Shown piece by piece: positions 1 to 6,109 of a stretch of DNA of 6,109 nt. Under the pieces are notes generated by a model. It searched no databases and had not been told where the DNA came from. It saw nothing but the letters and a program-made list of their open reading frames with translations. This stretch comes from a virus. Taxonomy: Duplodnaviria; Heunggongvirae; Uroviricota; Caudoviricetes. The DNA lies in the IMG/VR virus record IMGVR_UViG_2778261418_000002, positions 1-6,109 of that record; one strand, 5' to 3'. The first letter of the stretch is position 1, and each line of letters starts with the position of its first letter. The position numbers were made by a program, and so were the translations under genes.

Positions 1-292
1 CATTGGCAAAGGCTGCACGCAACCCGGCCTTAATTTCCTCTACCTCATCAGCACCTGGCGATGAATCTGACAGTGCGTGATGGAATGCGTAAGCCATGTC
101 GTCGTTTACTGCAACTGGCTCTGCTTCAAGCGATGTCAGTGCGATTCGTGCCAGTTCTAGATCTCGTTCAACCATCTCAAGAACAACTTTGCAGTCCGCA
201 CCTTCTTTGCTAACGCGTCCTTTCACGTTTTCCAGATAACTAACGCTTTCGCGTGCATGGGAGATTAACTGTTCTTTGGTAAAGGTGGTCAT
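1..292 (-). CDS. hypothetical phage protein, partial (3' end lies beyond the window start)
   Basis: ATG at 292-290 with AGGAG (303-299) 6 nt upstream. Hand translation (MTTFTKEQLSSHARESVSYLENVKGRVSKEGADCKVVLEMVERDLELARIALTSLEAEP...) stays open to position 1. Absent from the ORF track, presumably because it runs off the edge. No family recognised. Confidence 0.45.
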   Translation of the reverse strand, partial: MTTFTKEQLISHARESVSYLENVKGRVSKEGADCKVVLEMVERDLELARIALTSLEAEPVAVNDDMAYAFHHALSDSSPGADEVEEIKAGLRAAFAN

Positions 293-302
293 TTGTTACT
301 CC

Positions 303-566
303 TTAACCCGCAGTGCTTTCAACTGACGAGGGGAACAAAATCGTTTCATCAAATCCGGCATTCATATCATGGACAGCAGCACACCAATCCATCGACGAAC
401 GATTATCAAGAGCCTCCATGATTACATCCATGCGGCGTAGGTCATACAGGTAAATGTTTTTATCGCCAATGGTGTAAAAGCCTATTTTTTTCGGTGACGG
501 ACAGCGATCAAGAACGTCCTGTAATTCGTTCAACCATGCTTGTTCTTTTTTTGTCAAAGTTGCCAT
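303..566 (-). CDS. hypothetical protein (~87 aa)
   Basis: Part of track ORF 303..656. The track start is implausible because it overlaps the upstream gene. Internal ATG at 566-564 (MATLTKKEQAWLNELQDV...) has an AGGA-type SD about 8 nt upstream and sits 1 nt after the stop of the gene at 568-786. Stop TAA at 305-303. Confidence 0.45.
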   Translation of the reverse strand: MATLTKKEQAWLNELQDVLDRCPSPKKIGFYTIGDKNIYLYDLRRMDVIMEALDNRSSMDWCAAVHDMNAGFDETILFPSSVESTAG

Positions 567-567
567 A

Positions 568-786
568 TCAGCTTTCCTTATATGGGTTGATTTTGTTGTG
601 CAGTGTGTTGAACGACGCCCATACCACGTCGTTATACAATTCAATAACTGGCTCAATTACTTTTCCGATTATCCAGGCCAGTAATAGCGGGGATATCGGT
701 ATCATCAACACGATAAACAGAATGAGAAACAAAAATTCTGTCGCTCTACTTTTTCGCGGATATTCTTTTCTGAATAATGTAGTCAT
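568..786 (-). CDS. small membrane protein (~72 aa, one predicted transmembrane helix)
   Basis: Track ORF 568..786 with ATG at 786-784. Hydrophobic stretch FLFLILFIVLMIPISPLLLAWIIG. Tightly packed with the next gene downstream. A GC hairpin lies directly upstream of the start (793-808). Confidence 0.45.
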   Translation of the reverse strand: MTTLFRKEYPRKSRATEFLFLILFIVLMIPISPLLLAWIIGKVIEPVIELYNDVVWASFNTLHNKINPYKES

Positions 787-792
787 TTCTTA

Positions 793-808
793 CCGCCCTT
801 TCGGGCGG
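793..808 (-). promoter_or_regulatory. RNA stem-loop (6-bp GC stem, GAAA tetraloop on the - strand transcript) 6 nt upstream of the 786 start codon
   Basis: Plus strand CCGCCC-TTTC-GGGCGG at 793-808. On the - strand mRNA it reads CCGCCCGAAAGGGCGG followed by taagaaATG. There is no U-run after it on either strand, so it is not a classical intrinsic terminator. The only purine-rich SD-like bases for the 786 start lie inside the stem. Confidence 0.4.
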
Positions 809-818
809 CCTCCTGACA

Positions 819-1031
819 TTAATCGTTGTAATAACTCATAGCTTCATTTGCAGCATCAACTGGATCAACATCCCACCAGCAATAATTTGGCTCGACTCCT
901 TCAGGTGTCCACAGTTCTAATTCATTTTTTGCCGCATTCTCGTCGCCAGTAATTTTAAAAATCTGCTCAGAAAATTTCCTCACCCACTCGTTATATTTTT
1001 CCGTATTAATGGTTTTCTGTGTATTTAACAT
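819..1031 (-). CDS. hypothetical protein (70 aa)
   Basis: Track ORF 819..1031. ATG at 1031-1029 preceded by GGAGG about 7 nt upstream (minus-strand reading of 1046-1032). No recognisable domain. Confidence 0.5.
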   Translation of the reverse strand: MLNTQKTINTEKYNEWVRKFSEQIFKITGDENAAKNELELWTPEGVEPNYCWWDVDPVDAANEAMSYYND

Positions 1032-1081
1032 AGATATACCTCCAGTTAAGGATTTGATTTTATTTACAGTGCTAAATTTAT

Positions 1082-1438
1082 TTATTCAGTTCTGGATTTC
1101 GTCGCCCTGCGTATCCGCGCTTTCGCGTTACGCTCAATCTGAATTAACTTTTCTATATTTTTCCGCCTTTCCTGTTCCTCCTGGCGCAATAGCCTTACAT
1201 CATCTGCCAGTCTGGTTTCTCTTTTCGCCACTGAGAGCATCCAGTCAAACGGCTCCACAACTGCACCGCAGATTTTACAGCGGACCTGACGCTCTTTTTC
1301 GTCAACCCGGACAGAAGCGTGATGGCAGTATGGTCTTTCCGATGGCTCATAAAGAAAATTAACTTGATTACGTGGGTCATCCTCTTTTACCGGAAATAAA
1401 ACAATATTACTTAACTCATCCTCTGGTTTTATTTCCAT
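1082..1438 (-). CDS. hypothetical protein with Cys/His cluster (C-H-H-x13-C-x2-C) and a basic coiled-coil-like C-terminus
   Basis: Track ORF 1082..1495 begins with GTG immediately after the upstream stop. Preferred start is ATG at 1438-1436 (MEIKPEDELSNIVLF...) preceded by AGGAGAGGAG. Motif PYCHHASVRVDEKERQVRCKICG, then a charged tail RLLRQEEQERRKNIEKLIQIERNAKARIRR. Confidence 0.5.
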   Translation of the reverse strand: MEIKPEDELSNIVLFPVKEDDPRNQVNFLYEPSERPYCHHASVRVDEKERQVRCKICGAVVEPFDWMLSVAKRETRLADDVRLLRQEEQERRKNIEKLIQIERNAKARIRRATKSRTE

Positions 1439-1495
1439 GCTCCTCTCCTTTGATGCGAATGCCAGCGGCAATTGAAGCCTGATAGCTAATTTCAC

Positions 1496-1918
1496 TCACA
1501 GTACCGCCTCCTGAAAATTACCCTGATAGAAAGCCAGTACACGCTGCATAGCTTCGCTCTTCCGGCACTCGCGACAGATTATATTCAGGCGCCTGTCGTA
1601 GCGGCGTATTTCTCCGTCTGGTAATGACCAGATAAGGTCCGGATCAACCGCAGATGGTTTCTTCGGCTTTGCCCTTGAGAGCTTTTTACGGGCATTTTGC
1701 CAGTCCTTACGCGCCTGTTCAGACGGGAATAACCCGTAACCAGAGTTGTATACATCGCCACTGGCAACCAGCTCTCTGGCCAGAACGCTCATCAGATATC
1801 TTGTTGCCCCAGTTTTAGTTTCCAGTTGTCGTAACGTCTCGCGCCCACTCTGGCGTACGAGTTCAACAACCTGCCCTTTAATTTTTTCCCGCTCTTCTTG
1901 TGTAAATACTTTTGCCAT
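1496..1918 (-). CDS. hypothetical protein with an HTH-like segment
   Basis: Track ORF 1496..1933 begins with TTG. Preferred start is ATG at 1918-1916 (MAKVFTQEEREKIKGQ...) with GGAGG 5 nt upstream. HTH-like segment GRETLRQLETKTGATRYLMSVLAREL; C-x2-C near the C-terminus (CRECRK). Confidence 0.55.
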   Translation of the reverse strand: MAKVFTQEEREKIKGQVVELVRQSGRETLRQLETKTGATRYLMSVLARELVASGDVYNSGYGLFPSEQARKDWQNARKKLSRAKPKKPSAVDPDLIWSLPDGEIRRYDRRLNIICRECRKSEAMQRVLAFYQGNFQEAVL

Positions 1919-1933
1919 AGGTGCCTCCGGCAA

Positions 1934-2704
1934 TCACTTTTCCGACACAATACGACTGGAGGAATCGAAAATCTGTCGGACAATATCCCGGTGCCTGTTC
2001 AGCTCCCGCAGCGCAGCGCAGACACGCTCCCACTTCTGGACATGATTTTTCGCCCGACGCAGTTCGCGGTTTGCCAAATGCAGCGATGGCAAAATCAAAT
2101 CATCAGCTCGCGTTGCAGTAAACGATGGCAGCGACTGCACAATGTCCGCTACAGTTTCTGTTTTAATATCTTCCTGTGTTGCAGCTTCCTGTACTGGTAA
2201 CGCAATGCCGGCTGGCTGAGGAAAGGCTTTACCATCATTCTCCGTTACCGATGCGACTTTCGGCTTTACTGGTAAATTCTCGCCCGGCATGCAGTAGCGA
2301 AATTTACCGTTCTGGTTTACGCGTGCCAGCCGCCCCGTTGCGGTTACTACCGCCAGCGTGGAAGCAACCTTGCGAGTGCTGACACCGAACTTACCCGCCA
2401 GTTCCTCACACGTTTTAGCGCCCTCCTGACCGATAAACCCAATCATCATGTCAGCGGTAACTTTTCGTTCGACCTCCCTGGTTAGCACATCCTGTACTTC
2501 AGATTGTGCTGGCTGCTCTTCGGCTACCCCGGATTCACCTTCACCAGCCACACGCCAGGTGTATACGCTTTTATCAACGAAGCCAGCCTTTTTCAGTTCC
2601 CACAGCTCGTTCAGTACTTCTTCACGACTGATATCAAGTCGCGCAGCCAGCTCTACCGACGTGGCTTTTCCCATCGCTTTCAGTGCGTCAAAAACAGTCT
2701 CCAT
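1934..2704 (-). CDS. phage protein with two winged-helix-like domains separated by an acidic linker (resembles prophage proteins I recall as DUF1627; unverified)
   Basis: Track ORF 1934..2704, ATG at 2704-2702 with GGAAGGA SD. N-terminal wHTH-like [43 protein letters not shown]; acidic linker; second wHTH-like [44 protein letters not shown]. Lies directly downstream of the P-like gene. Confidence 0.6.
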
Positions 2705-2736
2705 AAATTTCCTTCCGGTAAAAATTACTTCTCAAC

Positions 2737-3402
2737 TCAAACAAACCCAGCCGCTTTCCGGCGTTCATATTCCTGTTTCAGCAACTCAATTGGCGTTGGT
2801 CCCGCAGGACGTATGGGTGCTGCCAGTTGCCTACGGACGGGTGGAACACTCAGTCCGTTACCAACATGCTTTGCCCATTTCGTCAGCTGCCGTTCTGCAA
2901 GCCGTTTTAACTCCCCCTCGGTCATCTGCCGCTCAATCCCCTTTGAACGCATCTCGAGGCAAATGTGATACAGCACGGGCTGAGGCCACGGATATTTATC
3001 GCTTCCGTCGTATCGCCAGGACTCATTGCGCCAGCGGCGATATTCCTCCATCACGTTATCCACCGTCAGACCAAATGGATTTGCCCCGCTCTCCGAAATC
3101 AGCGCCACAAACTCAGCCAGGTCCGGAGGCCATGTTTCACCCGCCCGGCAGCGGTCCATGCACTGGCGGCAGACCTGCCGGATTTGCTGCTCAGTCATCG
3201 CGCCAATCTGTACAATCCAGAGCTTCGAAGGTGCGGCCCCGTTCTTCTGGGTCCAGCGGTTCGAATAAATCTCCCCCATGAGTTCCCACAGCTTCCAGGC
3301 AGTTTCCGTCGTTGATAAATCCGTTTTCACGTTCCCACTGCTCACGTGCTGCCCGAATTTCCTGAACTGCCCGTGATGCGGTGCCACCTGGTGCTGCTGC
3401 AT
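2737..3402 (-). CDS. replication protein P-like (lambda P family helicase loader)
   Basis: C-terminal two thirds align by eye to lambda P as I recall it ([19 protein letters not shown] / [13 protein letters not shown] versus lambda AESYPWKSNAHYWLVTNLY / TDAELRRKAADEL). ATG at 3402-3400 has a strong SD (AAGGGGG, about 6 nt spacing) but overlaps the O-like ORF by about 212 nt out of frame. Alternative in-frame ATG at 3198-3196 forms ATGACTGA with the O-like stop. Start uncertain. Confidence 0.75.
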
Positions 3403-4231
3403 GGTTTACCCCCTTGCTGACTGGTTTAGCCTGCGCCCTGACGTGATTTACGTGACGGGCGAATTTCTGCTCCCACTGAACCTGCGTGAAAACTTTACCC
3501 TCCGCTGCCCAGTAGTCCCGGAAGGCGGCAAGTTCAGCTGGTGTAAATTCCGGCTCCGGCAGAGCCACTCCCCACAGAGCCGCCCGTCGTCGAAAATCCG
3601 GCGACGGATGCCAGCCATCGGTCATCGGAAATTTCCCGATGGGTTCGCTCAGGCCTTCCAGGTAATCAGGTTCCGATGTTTGCAACGGCACGCCATTTGC
3701 CTCACTGACCGGAGCACTCTCGCGCACGCGCGCGTTATGTGTGGGGTTTAATTCTTTATCTGTATCTTTATCTGTCGTGACTCGTCGTGACATGTCGTGA
3801 CATATGCGTGACTCGTCGCGCGCCCCCTCATTCTGTTTTCGTAATTTTTCCCTCTCGCGCTGCGCTCTCTTGCGCTCTGCCGGGGATTTCGCGGTTTGTG
3901 AAACGTTGCCATTGTCCTCTTTCAGTACCTGGCGTTTTTCCCATCCACTGATCAAATCTCCATCAAGTACCCGCCCCTGCATTGCCTGTAAAATTGAATC
4001 AATTACTTCTTCCGTCACATCAAGCGCACTTGCTAAATCTTCCGTCGTGACATCAATGTGACCACGTAGTGACACGCCGTGACATGTCGTGACATTTCGT
4101 GACGCGCTCACCAGAAGGTGGATATACACAGCCATCACTGTTGCGATTGGCTGCCCTGACACCCTGGCAATTGTTCGCCACTTAGGGTCATTTGGCATGT
4201 CATGCCATAATCTGAGCCAGGCGTTAGCCAT
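3191..4231 (-). CDS. putative replication initiator (lambda O position; YdaU/DUF1376-like by recollection)
   Basis: Track ORF 3191..4237 begins with GTG. Preferred start is ATG at 4231-4229 ([18 protein letters not shown]...) with GAGGTG SD. Sits between the CII-like and P-like genes as O does in lambda. Contains two embedded GTGAC repeat arrays and an AT-rich block, as ori lambda lies inside O. The family name is from memory. Confidence 0.65.
3775..3812 (+). repeat. iteron-like array A: four direct (T)CGTGAC repeats at 10-11 bp spacing
   Basis: GTGAC at 3777, 3787, 3797 and 3808. Preceded by an AT-rich block with two ~11-bp direct repeats (tctttatctg, 3752-3774) and an alternating CG tract (3721-3734); followed by GCGCGCC. 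Confidence 0.55.
4044..4103 (+). repeat. iteron-like array B: six direct GTGAC-core repeats at 10-11 bp spacing
   Basis: GTGAC at 4047, 4058, 4069, 4079, 4089 and 4099, all in the same orientation. The motif falls in all three codon phases of the O-like frame (peptide [20 protein letters not shown]). Confidence 0.55.
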
Positions 4232-4302
4232 ACTCACCTCTTTTGATACCGAATCTTTTTACTCACAAATTGCCGGAAGTGATCTGGTATGAATATCGCG
4301 AG

Positions 4303-4728
4303 TCAATGCACAGCCACAATATTTCCTGCAGGGCCACCACGATTCATCTGGTTGAAACCAGCGATCGCCACTGCGACAAAATCATCAGCGTCTCTCACCA
4401 GTCGTTCCCGCGTCTCCACCAGCTCCCGAAAATAGGCTGAACTGTGGCTGCGCATTCGGGCCACCAGCAGAGGTGGCATTGCTTTTTCGATCGCTGGTAA
4501 CAACGCCTGAATTTTTTTAACCGCATCAGGGGTGTCTTTCTCCACCCAGCGGAATATTTTCTGAGTATTGCGAGCCAGGGCTTCCGGATGGCTGTCGTCA
4601 TATAGCTCCGGGAACGTCATACCAAGCTCAAAATAAGCCCGGGTTATTTCAGCTGCCGGAACTTTTTCACCGTCCGGATGCGCCCAGACATTCATCGCCA
4701 TGCGGATGTGTTCATGCTTGATTTTCAT
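4303..4728 (-). CDS. ydaT: YdaT-like protein (CII functional analog in Rac/CP-933P-type prophages)
   Basis: Track ORF 4303..4728, 141 aa. Begins MKIKHEHI and ends IVAVH, matching my recollection of E. coli YdaT in length and termini. Its ATG overlaps the stop of the Cro-like gene (TAATG). Occupies the cII position. Confidence 0.7.
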   Translation of the reverse strand: MKIKHEHIRMAMNVWAHPDGEKVPAAEITRAYFELGMTFPELYDDSHPEALARNTQKIFRWVEKDTPDAVKKIQALLPAIEKAMPPLLVARMRSHSSAYFRELVETRERLVRDADDFVAVAIAGFNQMNRGGPAGNIVAVH

Positions 4729-4940
4729 TAATCATTCTTTCCTTCGTTCGAGGTGCTATCCTGCTTCTTGTAAAGTTCTGGGTTGTATTTCAATTCACCG
4801 TTAGTAATTTCATCCAGTTCCATTGCGCGAAGTTTGGGAATAACTGCTTTCCACCGCACAACAGCCACATGTGAAATTCCAAGAGCCTCAGCTACTAGTC
4901 GCTTTTTTTTGAAATAGCGCAGAACATCATCTTTGAACAT
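4728..4940 (-). CDS. Cro-like HTH regulator (YdaS/DicC-like)
   Basis: Track ORF 4728..4940, 70 aa. ATG at 4940-4938 with AGGAG SD at about 6 nt. HTH signature KRLVAEALGISHVAVVRWK. First gene of the operon divergent from the repressor. Confidence 0.75.
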   Translation of the reverse strand: MFKDDVLRYFKKKRLVAEALGISHVAVVRWKAVIPKLRAMELDEITNGELKYNPELYKKQDSTSNEGKND

Positions 4941-4969
4941 AAAACTCTCCTGTTATTTCGAGCGGGAGG

Positions 4970-4983
4970 GTAACAATAGTTAC
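4970..4983. promoter_or_regulatory. operator-like palindrome GTAAC-AATA-GTTAC (proximal to cro)
   Basis: Perfect 5-bp inverted arms with a 4-bp spacer in the cro/cI intergenic region. Lies where the -10 of a leftward promoter would fall, given the perfect TTGACA -35 at 4996-4991 on the - strand. Confidence 0.45.
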
Positions 4984-5017
4984 ATAGAAATGTCAACCAT
5001 AGCAACATCACTTGGTA

Positions 5018-5031
5018 GTAACATTGGTTAC
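5018..5031. promoter_or_regulatory. operator-like palindrome GTAAC-ATTG-GTTAC (abuts repressor start codon)
   Basis: Same half-sites as the 4970-4983 site. Ends 1 nt before the ATG at 5032. Contains TAACAT, a possible -10 for a leaderless repressor transcript. Confidence 0.45.
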
Positions 5032-5706
5032 ATGAAAAACACTATCAGCGAACGTATTCGGAATCGTCGAAAAGACGTTGGATTAACCCAACAGCAGGTT
5101 GCGAAAGCAATCGGCATATCTCGTGTATCCGTAACAAAATGGGAAAATGGCTCTTCAAAACCTGACGGTGAGAATTTGCATCTACTGTCAAAATTGCTTT
5201 CCAAATCTCCTGAATGGATTCTTTATGGAAAGGACTGTCACGATAAAACCGATGATCTGCGTCTGAATCAGTACCCTTACATTAGTGACAACATCGCCCG
5301 GTTGCCCGTTTTAACGTGGGAACAGGCTGGTTATTGGGATATGAGTTGTCCAGTAACCGAGATTCCTGGTATTAAGAATTGGGTTGATGTCATGACAAAA
5401 ACCGCTGAAAACTCTTTTTTATTGCATGTTGAGGGAGATGCGATGACAAACTCTAACGGCCTCCCAACCATCCCCGACGGATCTACCGTGCTGATCACAC
5501 CATGCTCAAGTAACATTAGAGAACTGGTGGGAAAAATAATCTTAATCCAATTGGAAGGAACGCCAAACGTAACACTAAAAAAAGTTGCGATTGACGGACC
5601 AAACATCTATCTGTTGTCACTGAATCCGCTTTACAAACCCATCGAACTGAATGGTGGTTACACCATTAAAGGTAAAGTTTCACAAATACATCAATACTTA
5701 GACTGA
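5032..5706 (+). CDS. CI-like prophage repressor: N-terminal XRE-type HTH plus C-terminal LexA/S24-like domain with Ala at the nucleophile position
   Basis: Track ORF 4933..5706 begins with TTG. Preferred start is ATG 5032 (MKNTISERIRNRRKDVGLTQQQVAKAIGISRVSVTKWENG), which leaves both operators intergenic; ATG 4990 is an alternative. C-terminal domain aligns by eye to lambda CI/LexA: QAG at the Ala-Gly cleavage position, VEGDAM where lambda has VEGNSM and LexA VSGMSM, and TLKKV...LNPLY versus lambda TFKKL...LNPQY. Confidence 0.8.
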   Translation: MKNTISERIRNRRKDVGLTQQQVAKAIGISRVSVTKWENGSSKPDGENLHLLSKLLSKSPEWILYGKDCHDKTDDLRLNQYPYISDNIARLPVLTWEQAGYWDMSCPVTEIPGIKNWVDVMTKTAENSFLLHVEGDAMTNSNGLPTIPDGSTVLITPCSSNIRELVGKIILIQLEGTPNVTLKKVAIDGPNIYLLSLNPLYKPIELNGGYTIKGKVSQIHQYLD

Positions 5707-5711
5707 GTCAG

Positions 5712-5738
5712 AACCCGCATTCATTGCGGGTTTTTTAT
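5712..5738 (+). terminator. rho-independent terminator of the repressor gene
   Basis: 8-bp stem AACCCGCA / TGCGGGTT with loop TTCAT, followed by TTTTTTAT, 6 nt after the stop codon. Confidence 0.65.
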
Positions 5739-5768
5739 GCCCTCAAGTGTACCTTTTGCAACATTGTA

Positions 5769-5797
5769 TTGACTCTAATGGTAACTCTTGTTACCTT
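5769..5797 (+). promoter_or_regulatory. putative rightward promoter (PL-like) with embedded operator GGTAAC-TCTT-GTTACC
   Basis: TTGACT (5769-5774), 17-bp spacer, TACCTT (5792-5797; weak -10). The 16-bp palindrome at 5780-5795 has the same half-sites as the two operators in the cro/cI intergenic region and covers the spacer and -10. Confidence 0.4.
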
Positions 5798-5975
5798 AAC
5801 AACATACCAACCCACCCCGCCCCACAGAACGCAGGGCAATACTTCGAGTTACCAGGCAGTGGTCAGGGGGTAAGTAGCCAGCCCGAGGCGTAAGAACATG
5901 ACGGCAGGGTTCAACTTTAACTATGCAGCAGGTTTTTGTTCCGCTACCCCGGCGTTAAGGGGAAATGAGGTCAAC

Positions 5976-6109
5976 ATGGATACTATCGATCTTGGCAACA
6001 GCGAATCTCTGGTATGTGGCGTGTTCCCCAATCAGGACGGTACGTTCACCGCGATGACGTATACCAAAAGCAAAACGTTTAAAACCGAAAATGGTGCCCG
6101 TCGCTGGCT
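5976..6109 (+). CDS. hypothetical early-left gene, partial (continues beyond window end)
   Basis: ATG at 5976 with GAGG 5 nt upstream; frame open to the window end (MDTIDLGNSESLVCGVFPNQDGTFTAMTYTKSKTFKTENGARRW...). In-frame upstream ATG at 5898 is an alternative start. Resembles a small Rac-region protein I vaguely recall; no name assigned. Confidence 0.5.
   Translation, partial: MDTIDLGNSESLVCGVFPNQDGTFTAMTYTKSKTFKTENGARRW

Follow-up and report, generated by a model that had tools for sequence, protein, structure and literature searches.

An out-of-frame overlap of 212 nucleotides between the initiator and helicase loader genes of a lambdoid prophage, conserved across Enterobacterales

Introduction

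The replication module of phage lambda, in which the gene of the initiator O is followed by the gene of the helicase loader P, is among the closest known counterparts of the system presented here. We have analysed the corresponding pair of genes, an O-like initiator gene and a P-like helicase loader gene, in a stretch of 6,109 nucleotides (nt) from a virus of the class Caudoviricetes (IMG/VR record IMGVR_UViG_2778261418_000002, positions 1 to 6,109; this whole stretch is called the window hereafter), and in particular the 212 nt (positions 3191-3402, minus strand) that the two genes share in different reading frames. In lambda, the C-terminus of O binds the N-terminus of P. The window and lambda have in common the gene order cI / cro / gene at the cII position / initiator / loader, the presence of iterons inside the initiator gene, a loader of the PF06992/PHROG 109 family with a lambda-P-like predicted fold, and a C-terminal half of the initiator that moves with the loader as a mosaic unit. 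The initiator of the window differs from lambda O in that it is not lambda-O-like and contains a DnaT-like single-stranded DNA (ssDNA)-binding domain. The O and P genes of lambda overlap by 4 nt (ATGA), whereas the overlap is of 212 nt in the window, where P has its own internal Shine-Dalgarno sequence (SD). Contrary to the lambda-type coupling, the conserved start of the loader does not overlap the stop of the initiator: the conserved SD-ATG is located 212 nt upstream of the O stop. The N-terminal arm of the window loader displays no sequence similarity to domain I of lambda P.

Same-strand, out-of-frame overlaps of tens of codons with an independent internal start are known from overprinted genes such as D/E and A/B/K of phiX174, Rz/Rz1 of lambda and the lysis gene of MS2, and the overlap of the window shares these features. 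It also resembles overprinted genes in having one partner predicted to be disordered where the other is structured, a pattern that is reportedly typical of overprinted regions. Unlike these genes, the window shows a terminal overlap of two neighbours whose products are expected to cooperate, and not an embedded gene, and the constraint is partitioned between the frames instead of being superimposed.

Two further comparisons concern the initiator. Its C-terminal half is about 60% identical to the C-terminal ssDNA-binding domain of the host protein DnaT, from which it differs by another N-terminal domain and by an extra tail of about 70 amino acids (aa). A disordered acidic C-terminal tail following an ssDNA-binding domain is also present in E. 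coli SSB, T7 gp2.5 and T4 gp32. This is a resemblance only: the tail of the window initiator has no sequence homology with them and no terminal motif conserved across genera, and its composition is partly forced by the P codons.

Results

Start signals of the loader gene inside the initiator gene

The overlap appears to be real and old: we consider, with a probability of roughly 85%, that P starts at ATG 3402, about 70 codons inside the O-like gene, and that O runs to position 3191. The two open reading frames (ORFs) lie on the minus strand, where P is shifted by +1 with respect to O (coordinates of all features are listed in Table 1). In the P frame, the stop codon TAA (3408-3406) is found one codon upstream of ATG 3402. 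The energy of the duplex between the SD and the anti-SD at the 16S 3' end is -11.8 kcal/mol for ATG 3402, -4.2 kcal/mol for ATG 3279 (P Met42) and -3.1 kcal/mol for ATG 3198 (P Met69). An earlier note on this DNA, made from the sequence, had described both frames as open over about 212 nt, the SD AAGGGGG of ATG 3402 as the strongest of the region although it lies within the O-like ORF, and an alternative P start at 3198 that overlaps the O stop (ATGACTGA) at the price of 68 residues; all these descriptions agree with our results.

No conserved RNA structure was detected near the P start: the program RNAalifold applied to ten genera gave four uninformative pairs with zero covariation, and the single-sequence z-score was -0.04. 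A structure-mediated coupling is therefore without support.

Conservation of the architecture in Enterobacterales

Related loci were searched in one genome per species of the Enterobacterales, and 40 loci were obtained. In 34 of them, which represent about 18 enterobacterial genera, P belongs to the same subfamily and is preceded by an initiator with a DnaT domain. A characteristic of the P frame is the conserved motif W36-x-x-W39-E-x-M42-x-x-I-Y-x-x-R-W-x-x-K-N-G. In all 34 loci, the initiator ORF extends 74-122 nt beyond the W36 codon of the P frame, and an ATG located 25-36 codons upstream of W36 has GGAGG, GGGGG or GAGG 5-8 nt before it. The overlap, from this SD-ATG to the O stop, thus comprises between 149 and 227 nt. 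The SD duplex has a median energy of -10.2 kcal/mol in the 34 loci, compared with -3.0 kcal/mol for the other ATG codons of both genes, and 85% of the loci are under the 5th percentile of this background. In five loci (L011, L019, L023, L026 and L033), the SD-ATG is the sole ATG, GTG or TTG of the P frame upstream of W36.

The other methionines of the P frame show different degrees of conservation. Met42 is nearly invariant among the P homologues. Met69 is replaced by Leu, Phe or Cys in Pectobacterium, Brenneria, Serratia and Rouxiella and is not conserved outside the Enterobacteriaceae, and the position of the O stop in other genera differs (+74 to +122 nt from W36).

The scan of IMG/VR for more distant relatives gave only contigs of the E. 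coli type with 95-98% identity, and these serve as a polymorphism check; in 76 of the 79 viral contigs of this type, the SD and the ATG are preserved, the P frame is open and O ends at the same stop. We did not find a pre-overlap ancestor, in which a P of this subfamily would be combined with an initiator that it does not overlap; the only non-overlapping relatives among the loci are the true lambda-type O/P loci L042-L045.

Two Erwinia loci contain an intact-looking P-like ORF with the W36 motif and no upstream initiator (L029, 2492-3118, 208 aa; L039, 2471-3040, 189 aa). Their neighbours are a TtcA-like host gene in L029 and a phosphotransferase system (PTS) transporter gene in L039. Each of these solitary genes is apparently all that survives of a deleted prophage. 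They were considered as an independent test of the constraint on P and were set aside as truncated prophage remnants, which are weakly informative.

Maintenance of both open frames

In the 34 overlaps, no stop codon is observed in the O and P frames, whereas the third frame contains 126 stops (0.055 per codon). The off-frames elsewhere in both genes contain 0.04-0.07 stops per codon. A stop in the O frame requires a T at the third position of a P codon that is followed by a P codon beginning with AA, AG or GA. Such a T occurs at 0 of the 393 eligible sites of the overlap and at 268 of the 968 eligible sites of the P-only part. The converse test, for stops in the P frame, gave 0 of 186 sites compared with 311 of 860. 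The Fisher p values are 8e-46 and 1e-32, respectively, with the loci counted as independent despite their shared ancestry.

Taken alone, the window is unremarkable in this respect. With the O protein fixed and synonymous codons resampled, the probability that the P frame is open is 0.30; with the P protein fixed, the probability that the O frame is open is 0.046. When the same resampling was applied to 25 representative loci, the median probability of an open frame was 0.27 for P and 0.04 for O, yet the 25 loci are all open in both. Even if just eight independent lineages are assumed, the two outcomes are far from chance. Since the overlap in a single sequence is statistically unremarkable, the verdict rests on the comparative data.

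Distribution of constraint between the frames

The variability of each codon phase was measured as the mean pairwise nucleotide difference in a gapless alignment of ten representative loci of Enterobacteriaceae. The values are given below in the order O1=P3/O2=P1/O3=P2, where the letter indicates the frame and the number the codon position. They are.24/.22/.54 in the O-only control and.53/.17/.10 in the P-only control. The 5' part of the overlap (P aa 2-35) has values of.378/.303/.463 and the 3' part (W36-Met69) values of.399/.110/.119. The amino acid identities in the 5' part are.51 in the O frame,.39 in the P frame and.33 in the third frame. In the 3' part they are.54,.81 and.56, respectively, and the identity of the P-only control is also.81. 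The P-type pattern from W36 to Met69, with the same identity as in the P-only part, indicates that this segment belongs to P.

A sliding window locates the switch from the O type to the P type at about 3316-3325, 6-9 codons before that of W36 (3297-3295). Centred on W36, the variability is.13 at P1,.07 at P2 and.50 at P3, and the conserved residues W36 and W39 and their neighbours, all of them before Met42, show the codon variability of the P type. In the 3' part, the O-frame changes at P-synonymous differences, scored with BLOSUM, are no more conservative than all possible changes or than a non-coding control.

The constraint is thus handed off between the frames and not doubled: the segment from 3402 to about 3320 evolves as O and the segment from about 3316 to 3191 evolves as P. 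Purifying selection at the residue level acting simultaneously on both frames at the same nucleotides was not observed in the overlap. The long dual-coding overlap considered in the earlier note is therefore retained in one sense, both frames being kept open in 34 loci, and modified in another, the residue-level constraint being partitioned. The comparison of the two frames across homologues gives an O-type answer in the 5' part and a P-type answer in the 3' part, the partner frame being merely open in each.

The loader protein and its annotation

The long form of P has 221 aa and matches the Pfam family PF06992 (Phage_lambda_P) with 60.2 bits for a cut-off of 26, the alignment starting at P aa 58. 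The profile phrog_109 ('P-like helicase loader') is aligned over nearly its whole length, P aa 19-220 corresponding to positions 22-235 of 236 (E = 3.3e-62). Pairwise comparisons with lambda P by BLAST or phmmer align only from aa 72-86.

A structural model of P was built with AlphaFold2 from 35 homologues. Residues 1-26 are predicted to be disordered, with a predicted local distance difference test score (pLDDT) below 50. They are followed by the helices 25-46, 48-54, 60-67, 71-86 and 95-105 and by further helices running to residue 217; the pLDDT is about 85 for aa 31-70. The best matches obtained with Foldseek in the PDB are the lambda P chains 9oa1_Z, 9oa1_Y and 9oa1_V of the DnaB-lambda P complex, which comprise full-length chains and a chain of domains II-IV, with a probability of 1.0, 198-219 aligned columns and a template modelling (TM) score of 0.44-0.52. 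A modest global TM score would be expected when domains are connected by flexible linkers. In lambda P, domain I (residues 1-29/39) is a disordered 'lasso' and domain II (about 30-119) is a compact domain that forms the loader spiral (PMC12661323). The predicted model displays the same order, with a disordered arm, a compact helical domain II, a domain III and a C-terminal lasso. As judged from this model, the long form of P reproduces the layout of lambda P, and its N-terminus is the predicted counterpart of the domain I 'lasso'.

The lengths attributed to this loader family in public databases are inconsistent between pipelines and genera. For E. coli, RefSeq and the NCBI Prokaryotic Genome Annotation Pipeline (PGAP) give a 'replication protein P' of 153 aa from ATG 3198, with an overlap of 8 nt with O, and a DDBJ record of a Stx phage gives 140 aa. 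In Salmonella, Klebsiella, Citrobacter, Pectobacterium and Brenneria, PGAP gives 180-181 aa from the equivalent of Met42; two different internal methionines are therefore used by the same pipeline. With other submissions and gene callers, the protein has 215-223 aa in many genera, and the ORF of 221 aa is already present in some GenBank records. The RefSeq forms of 153 aa (E. coli, 68 residues short) and of 180 aa (other genera, 41 residues short) are truncations. They would arise because annotation disfavours long overlaps.

Alternative explanations

A start of P at Met42 (ATG 3279), which would give a protein of 180 aa and reduce the overlap to 89 nt, seems improbable to us. This codon is used by PGAP in many genera, is nearly invariant and is preceded by a weak GGGA. 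However, the P-type conservation already includes W36 and W39, and a far stronger conserved SD-ATG is located upstream in every locus. Since the predicted helix 25-46 spans Met42, a start at this residue would also cut the first helix of domain II.

We give even less credit to a start at ATG 3198, for which P would be coupled to the termination of O at ATGACTGA and the P frame would be untranslated from 3199 to 3402. This is the coupled start that the earlier note had considered. It is the one annotated by PGAP in E. coli records, its ATGA-type coupling is the arrangement of lambda, and the pairwise similarity with lambda P begins at about aa 72. On the other hand, the region 3199-3316 exhibits the P-frame codon pattern with 81% identity in the P frame, so that Met69 is internal to a P-constrained segment, and Met69 and the position of the O stop both vary in other genera, as described above. 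The SD of this start is weak. From the helices of the model and the domain limits of lambda P, a start at Met69 would drop about 40% of the equivalent of domain II. The similarity with lambda P had been thought to appear near 3198; this is correct for the pairwise comparisons and not for the profiles and the fold, which align from aa 58 (Pfam), from aa 19 (PHROG 109) and over 200-219 columns.

A programmed +1 frameshift within the overlap, producing an O-P fusion beside or instead of separate products, is very unlikely. In its favour, about 70 codons are open in both frames, P being read in the +1 frame of O. Moreover, the profile phrog_15931 ('unknown function', 482 positions) spans both proteins, O matching positions 1-347 and P positions 280-482, so fused sequences exist in databases. 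Against this hypothesis, P has its own conserved and strong SD-ATG, the RNA at the P start has no conserved structure, and the fused ORFs examined are explained by differences in homopolymer length in a decaying prophage. No slippery or hungry-codon motif was identified in the overlap, where no systematic search for such motifs was made.

The fused ORFs are those of the database proteins P0108 and P0095. The corresponding DNA (L126, about 2150-2180; L127, about 2500-2530) contains a run of either five or four G just upstream of W36. The run of five joins the O frame to the body of P, and the run of four sends the P start into the frame of the O tail; neither gives the standard architecture. 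Further frameshifts are present in O and at the 3' end of P in this prophage. Considering the G4/G5 run and the other frameshifts, we have rejected P0108, P0095 and phrog_15931 as examples of a natural fusion or of programmed frameshifting. The fused O-P ORFs probably result from decay or from an assembly or homopolymer error, and phrog_15931 seems to have been built from initiators mixed with frame-fused initiator-loader ORFs.

The last explanation, the mis-called boundary also suggested in the earlier note, is that a frameshift, an indel or a sequencing error near the C-terminus of O falsely extends O or opens the P frame. Some assemblies do contain O-P ORFs fused in frame, and a long overlap annotated in a prokaryote is often a misprediction. 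However, this explanation is practically ruled out by the recurrence of the geometry across many genera (34 loci) and in 76 of the 79 viral contigs, by a complete genome 99.9% identical that carries the same sequence, and by the origin of the fused ORFs in one lineage with the G4/G5 run and several other frameshifts.

The initiator protein and its tail

The O-like protein matches PHROG 1408/3992 and is composed of an N-terminal replisome-organizer part whose gene segment contains iterons, a DnaT-like ssDNA-binding domain and a tail of about 70 aa. Its start is given by the ORF program as GTG 4237 (348 aa) and by PGAP as ATG 4231 (346 aa). The SD of ATG 4231, GAGGTGAG, has an energy of -7.1 kcal/mol compared with -3.0 kcal/mol at GTG 4237, and ATG 4231 is the likely start. 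The DnaT DNA-binding domain PF17948 is recognized at O aa 203-270 with 66.3 bits for a cut-off of 25. The protein does not reach the level of the DnaT equivalog NF002770 of NCBIfam (97.9 bits for a cut-off of 201), of which it matches profile positions 81-167 only.

Repeats of the GTCACGAC type with a phasing of 10 bp are found in the N-terminal half of the O-like gene, in two clusters on the minus strand (3774-3813 and 4044-4105) that are about 270 bp apart and contain 4 and 5-6 copies. In total, 13 matches are observed compared with 3.9 expected. These repeats are probably the iteron-type origin of the module, as ori-lambda is located within the O gene.

In host DnaT and in the DnaT-domain proteins of other phages, 25-30 residues follow the domain, so that these proteins end about where P starts. 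The additional tail of about 70 residues is restricted to the lineage linked to P. The AlphaFold2 model of O shows a confident DnaT domain, a low-confidence helix at 289-304 and a disordered segment from about 308 to the end (pLDDT below 50). A conserved motif of the tail helix, ASRAVQ-I--AR--W, is encoded at about 3326-3373, in the 5' part of the overlap. The last 40 residues or so are Gly-rich, and they are acidic in every one of the 34 loci (mean net charge -6.6, range -10 to -1).

Gene content and mosaicism of the prophage

The window corresponds to the immunity and replication region of an E. coli prophage of the lambdoid type (Rac/Stx-like; Table 1). In the complete genome of E. coli O126:H45 MIN10, a stretch 99.9% identical to the window contains the same overlap sequence. 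Related replication modules are matched in 2599 of 5426 complete E. coli genomes, that is in about half of them.

Megablast matches with phages and E. coli genomes stop at about 3754-3758 of the window, midway through the O-like gene. Some relatives share the N-terminal half of O alone (about 3754-4300), and others share the C-terminal half of O and P alone (2700-3758). The position 3754-3758 is a joint of mosaic recombination, with the origin-binding half on one side and the block of the DnaT domain and the loader on the other. This break inside O indicates that the C-terminal half of O and P are swapped as a single block and that the N-terminal half with the iterons is exchanged separately. 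Such a block-wise exchange agrees with the physical overlap and with the expected partnership of O and P.

In MIN10, the DUF977 gene is marked by PGAP as a frameshifted pseudogene (about 1492-1933 of the window; 1293-1719 of locus L001). Its counterpart in the window is an ORF of 145 aa with a TTG start (1496-1933), directly followed downstream by an ORF of 137 aa (1082-1495). The DUF977 region suggests that the prophage is not wholly intact.

Table 1. Features of the overlap, of the two overlapping genes and of the neighbouring genes, with positions in the window.
Feature	Position	Strand	Remarks
Out-of-frame overlap	3191..3402	minus	Both frames stop-free
P-like gene, long form	2737..3402	minus	221 aa; ATG 3402-3400, stop 2739-2737
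Shine-Dalgarno AAGGGGG of the P-like gene	3409..3415	minus	Within the O-like coding sequence; 6 nt spacer to ATG
5' part of the overlap, O-frame substitutions	3317..3399	minus	P residues 2-~29, variable, predicted disordered
3' part of the overlap, P-frame substitutions	3191..3316	minus	P ~30-69 (W36-K-L-W39-E-L-M42...W50...W62); O aa ~308-346
ATG of P Met42	3277..3279	minus	PGAP start of the 180-181-aa forms
ATGACTGA, P Met69 codon overlapping the O stop	3191..3198	minus	RefSeq/PGAP start of the 153-aa 'replication protein P'
O-like initiator gene	3191..4231	minus	346 aa from ATG 4231; stop TGA 3193-3191
DnaT-like ssDNA-binding domain of the O-like protein	3428..3631	minus	~60% identical to the host DnaT C-terminal domain
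YdaT-family gene	4303-4728	minus	
Cro-like gene	4728-4940	minus	
LexA/CI-type repressor gene	4933-5706	plus	
DUF1627 and DUF977 genes		minus	Further members of the window gene set

Discussion

The conserved feature of this module is not the ATGA coupling of lambda. We propose that P would be translated independently from its own strong internal site, AAGGGGG-N6-ATG 3402, and that the ribosomes translating O would read through this site to the stop at 3191, the same 212 nt being read in two frames. In the first 85 nt or so, O would be the constrained partner, with the helix that follows the DnaT-like domain, and P would contribute a variable disordered arm. In the last 125 nt or so, P would be the constrained partner, with the first helices of domain II, and O would contribute an acidic disordered tail that is dictated by the P codons and kept free of stops.

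Several points weigh against this explanation. The synthesis of both products from these boundaries is deduced from sequence. Residues 1 to about 29 of P are almost without conservation at the residue level (.39 against.33 in the third frame), and the sole arguments for their translation are the conservation of the SD-ATG, the openness of the frame and the absence of other starts. Between 3191 and 3316, the O tail is likewise without constraint at the residue level (.54 against.56 in the third frame), and the selection that would keep it open is derived from counts that ignore kinship. PGAP consistently favours shorter forms of P, and additional internal initiation may take place at Met42 or Met69.

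Concerning the origin of the O tail, the fact that host DnaT and the DnaT-like proteins of other phages end about where P starts points to an overprinting of the tail onto the 5' coding region of P. The simplest reading of its 3' part is that of a passenger shaped by the P codons and selected to stay open. Its acidity would be consistent with a role at the level of composition, as an SSB-like tail or in a contact with P, or with a requirement for length; the selected property, if any, would be composition or length and not sequence. It is conceivable, if rather doubtful, that the overprinted tail has become functional as an acidic disordered segment selected for its composition, for example by gating the DnaT-like domain or by docking the loader-DnaB complex. 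If this were true, the DNA of domains I and II of the loader would also encode a segment of the initiator that contacts the loader. Two determinants of specificity would then be locked in one non-recombinable unit, which would explain their joint movement in lambdoid mosaics.

Long out-of-frame overlaps with an internal start are already known in phages. In literature searches of incomplete coverage, we could not find a description of the conservation of this overlap in Enterobacterales, of the truncation of a domain in RefSeq, of the hand-off of constraint or of modules combining a DnaT-like initiator with P, nor any proteomic or ribosome-profiling data showing both products with these termini; the conservation across Enterobacterales, the truncated-domain models and the hand-off therefore seem undescribed.

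A practical consequence is that whoever clones, models or classifies 'replication protein P' of these prophages from RefSeq handles a protein from which a portion of a folded domain is missing. Long same-strand overlaps are usually dismissed as mispredictions, and the present one is conserved across many genera and clean enough to be used as a test case. Two point mutations, synonymous in O or in P, could separate the functions of the two frames. For the biology of these prophages, the overlap represents a case in which two proteins share DNA by alternating constraint, the partner being disordered, and it offers a simple explanation for the joint inheritance of the C-terminal half of the initiator and the loader.

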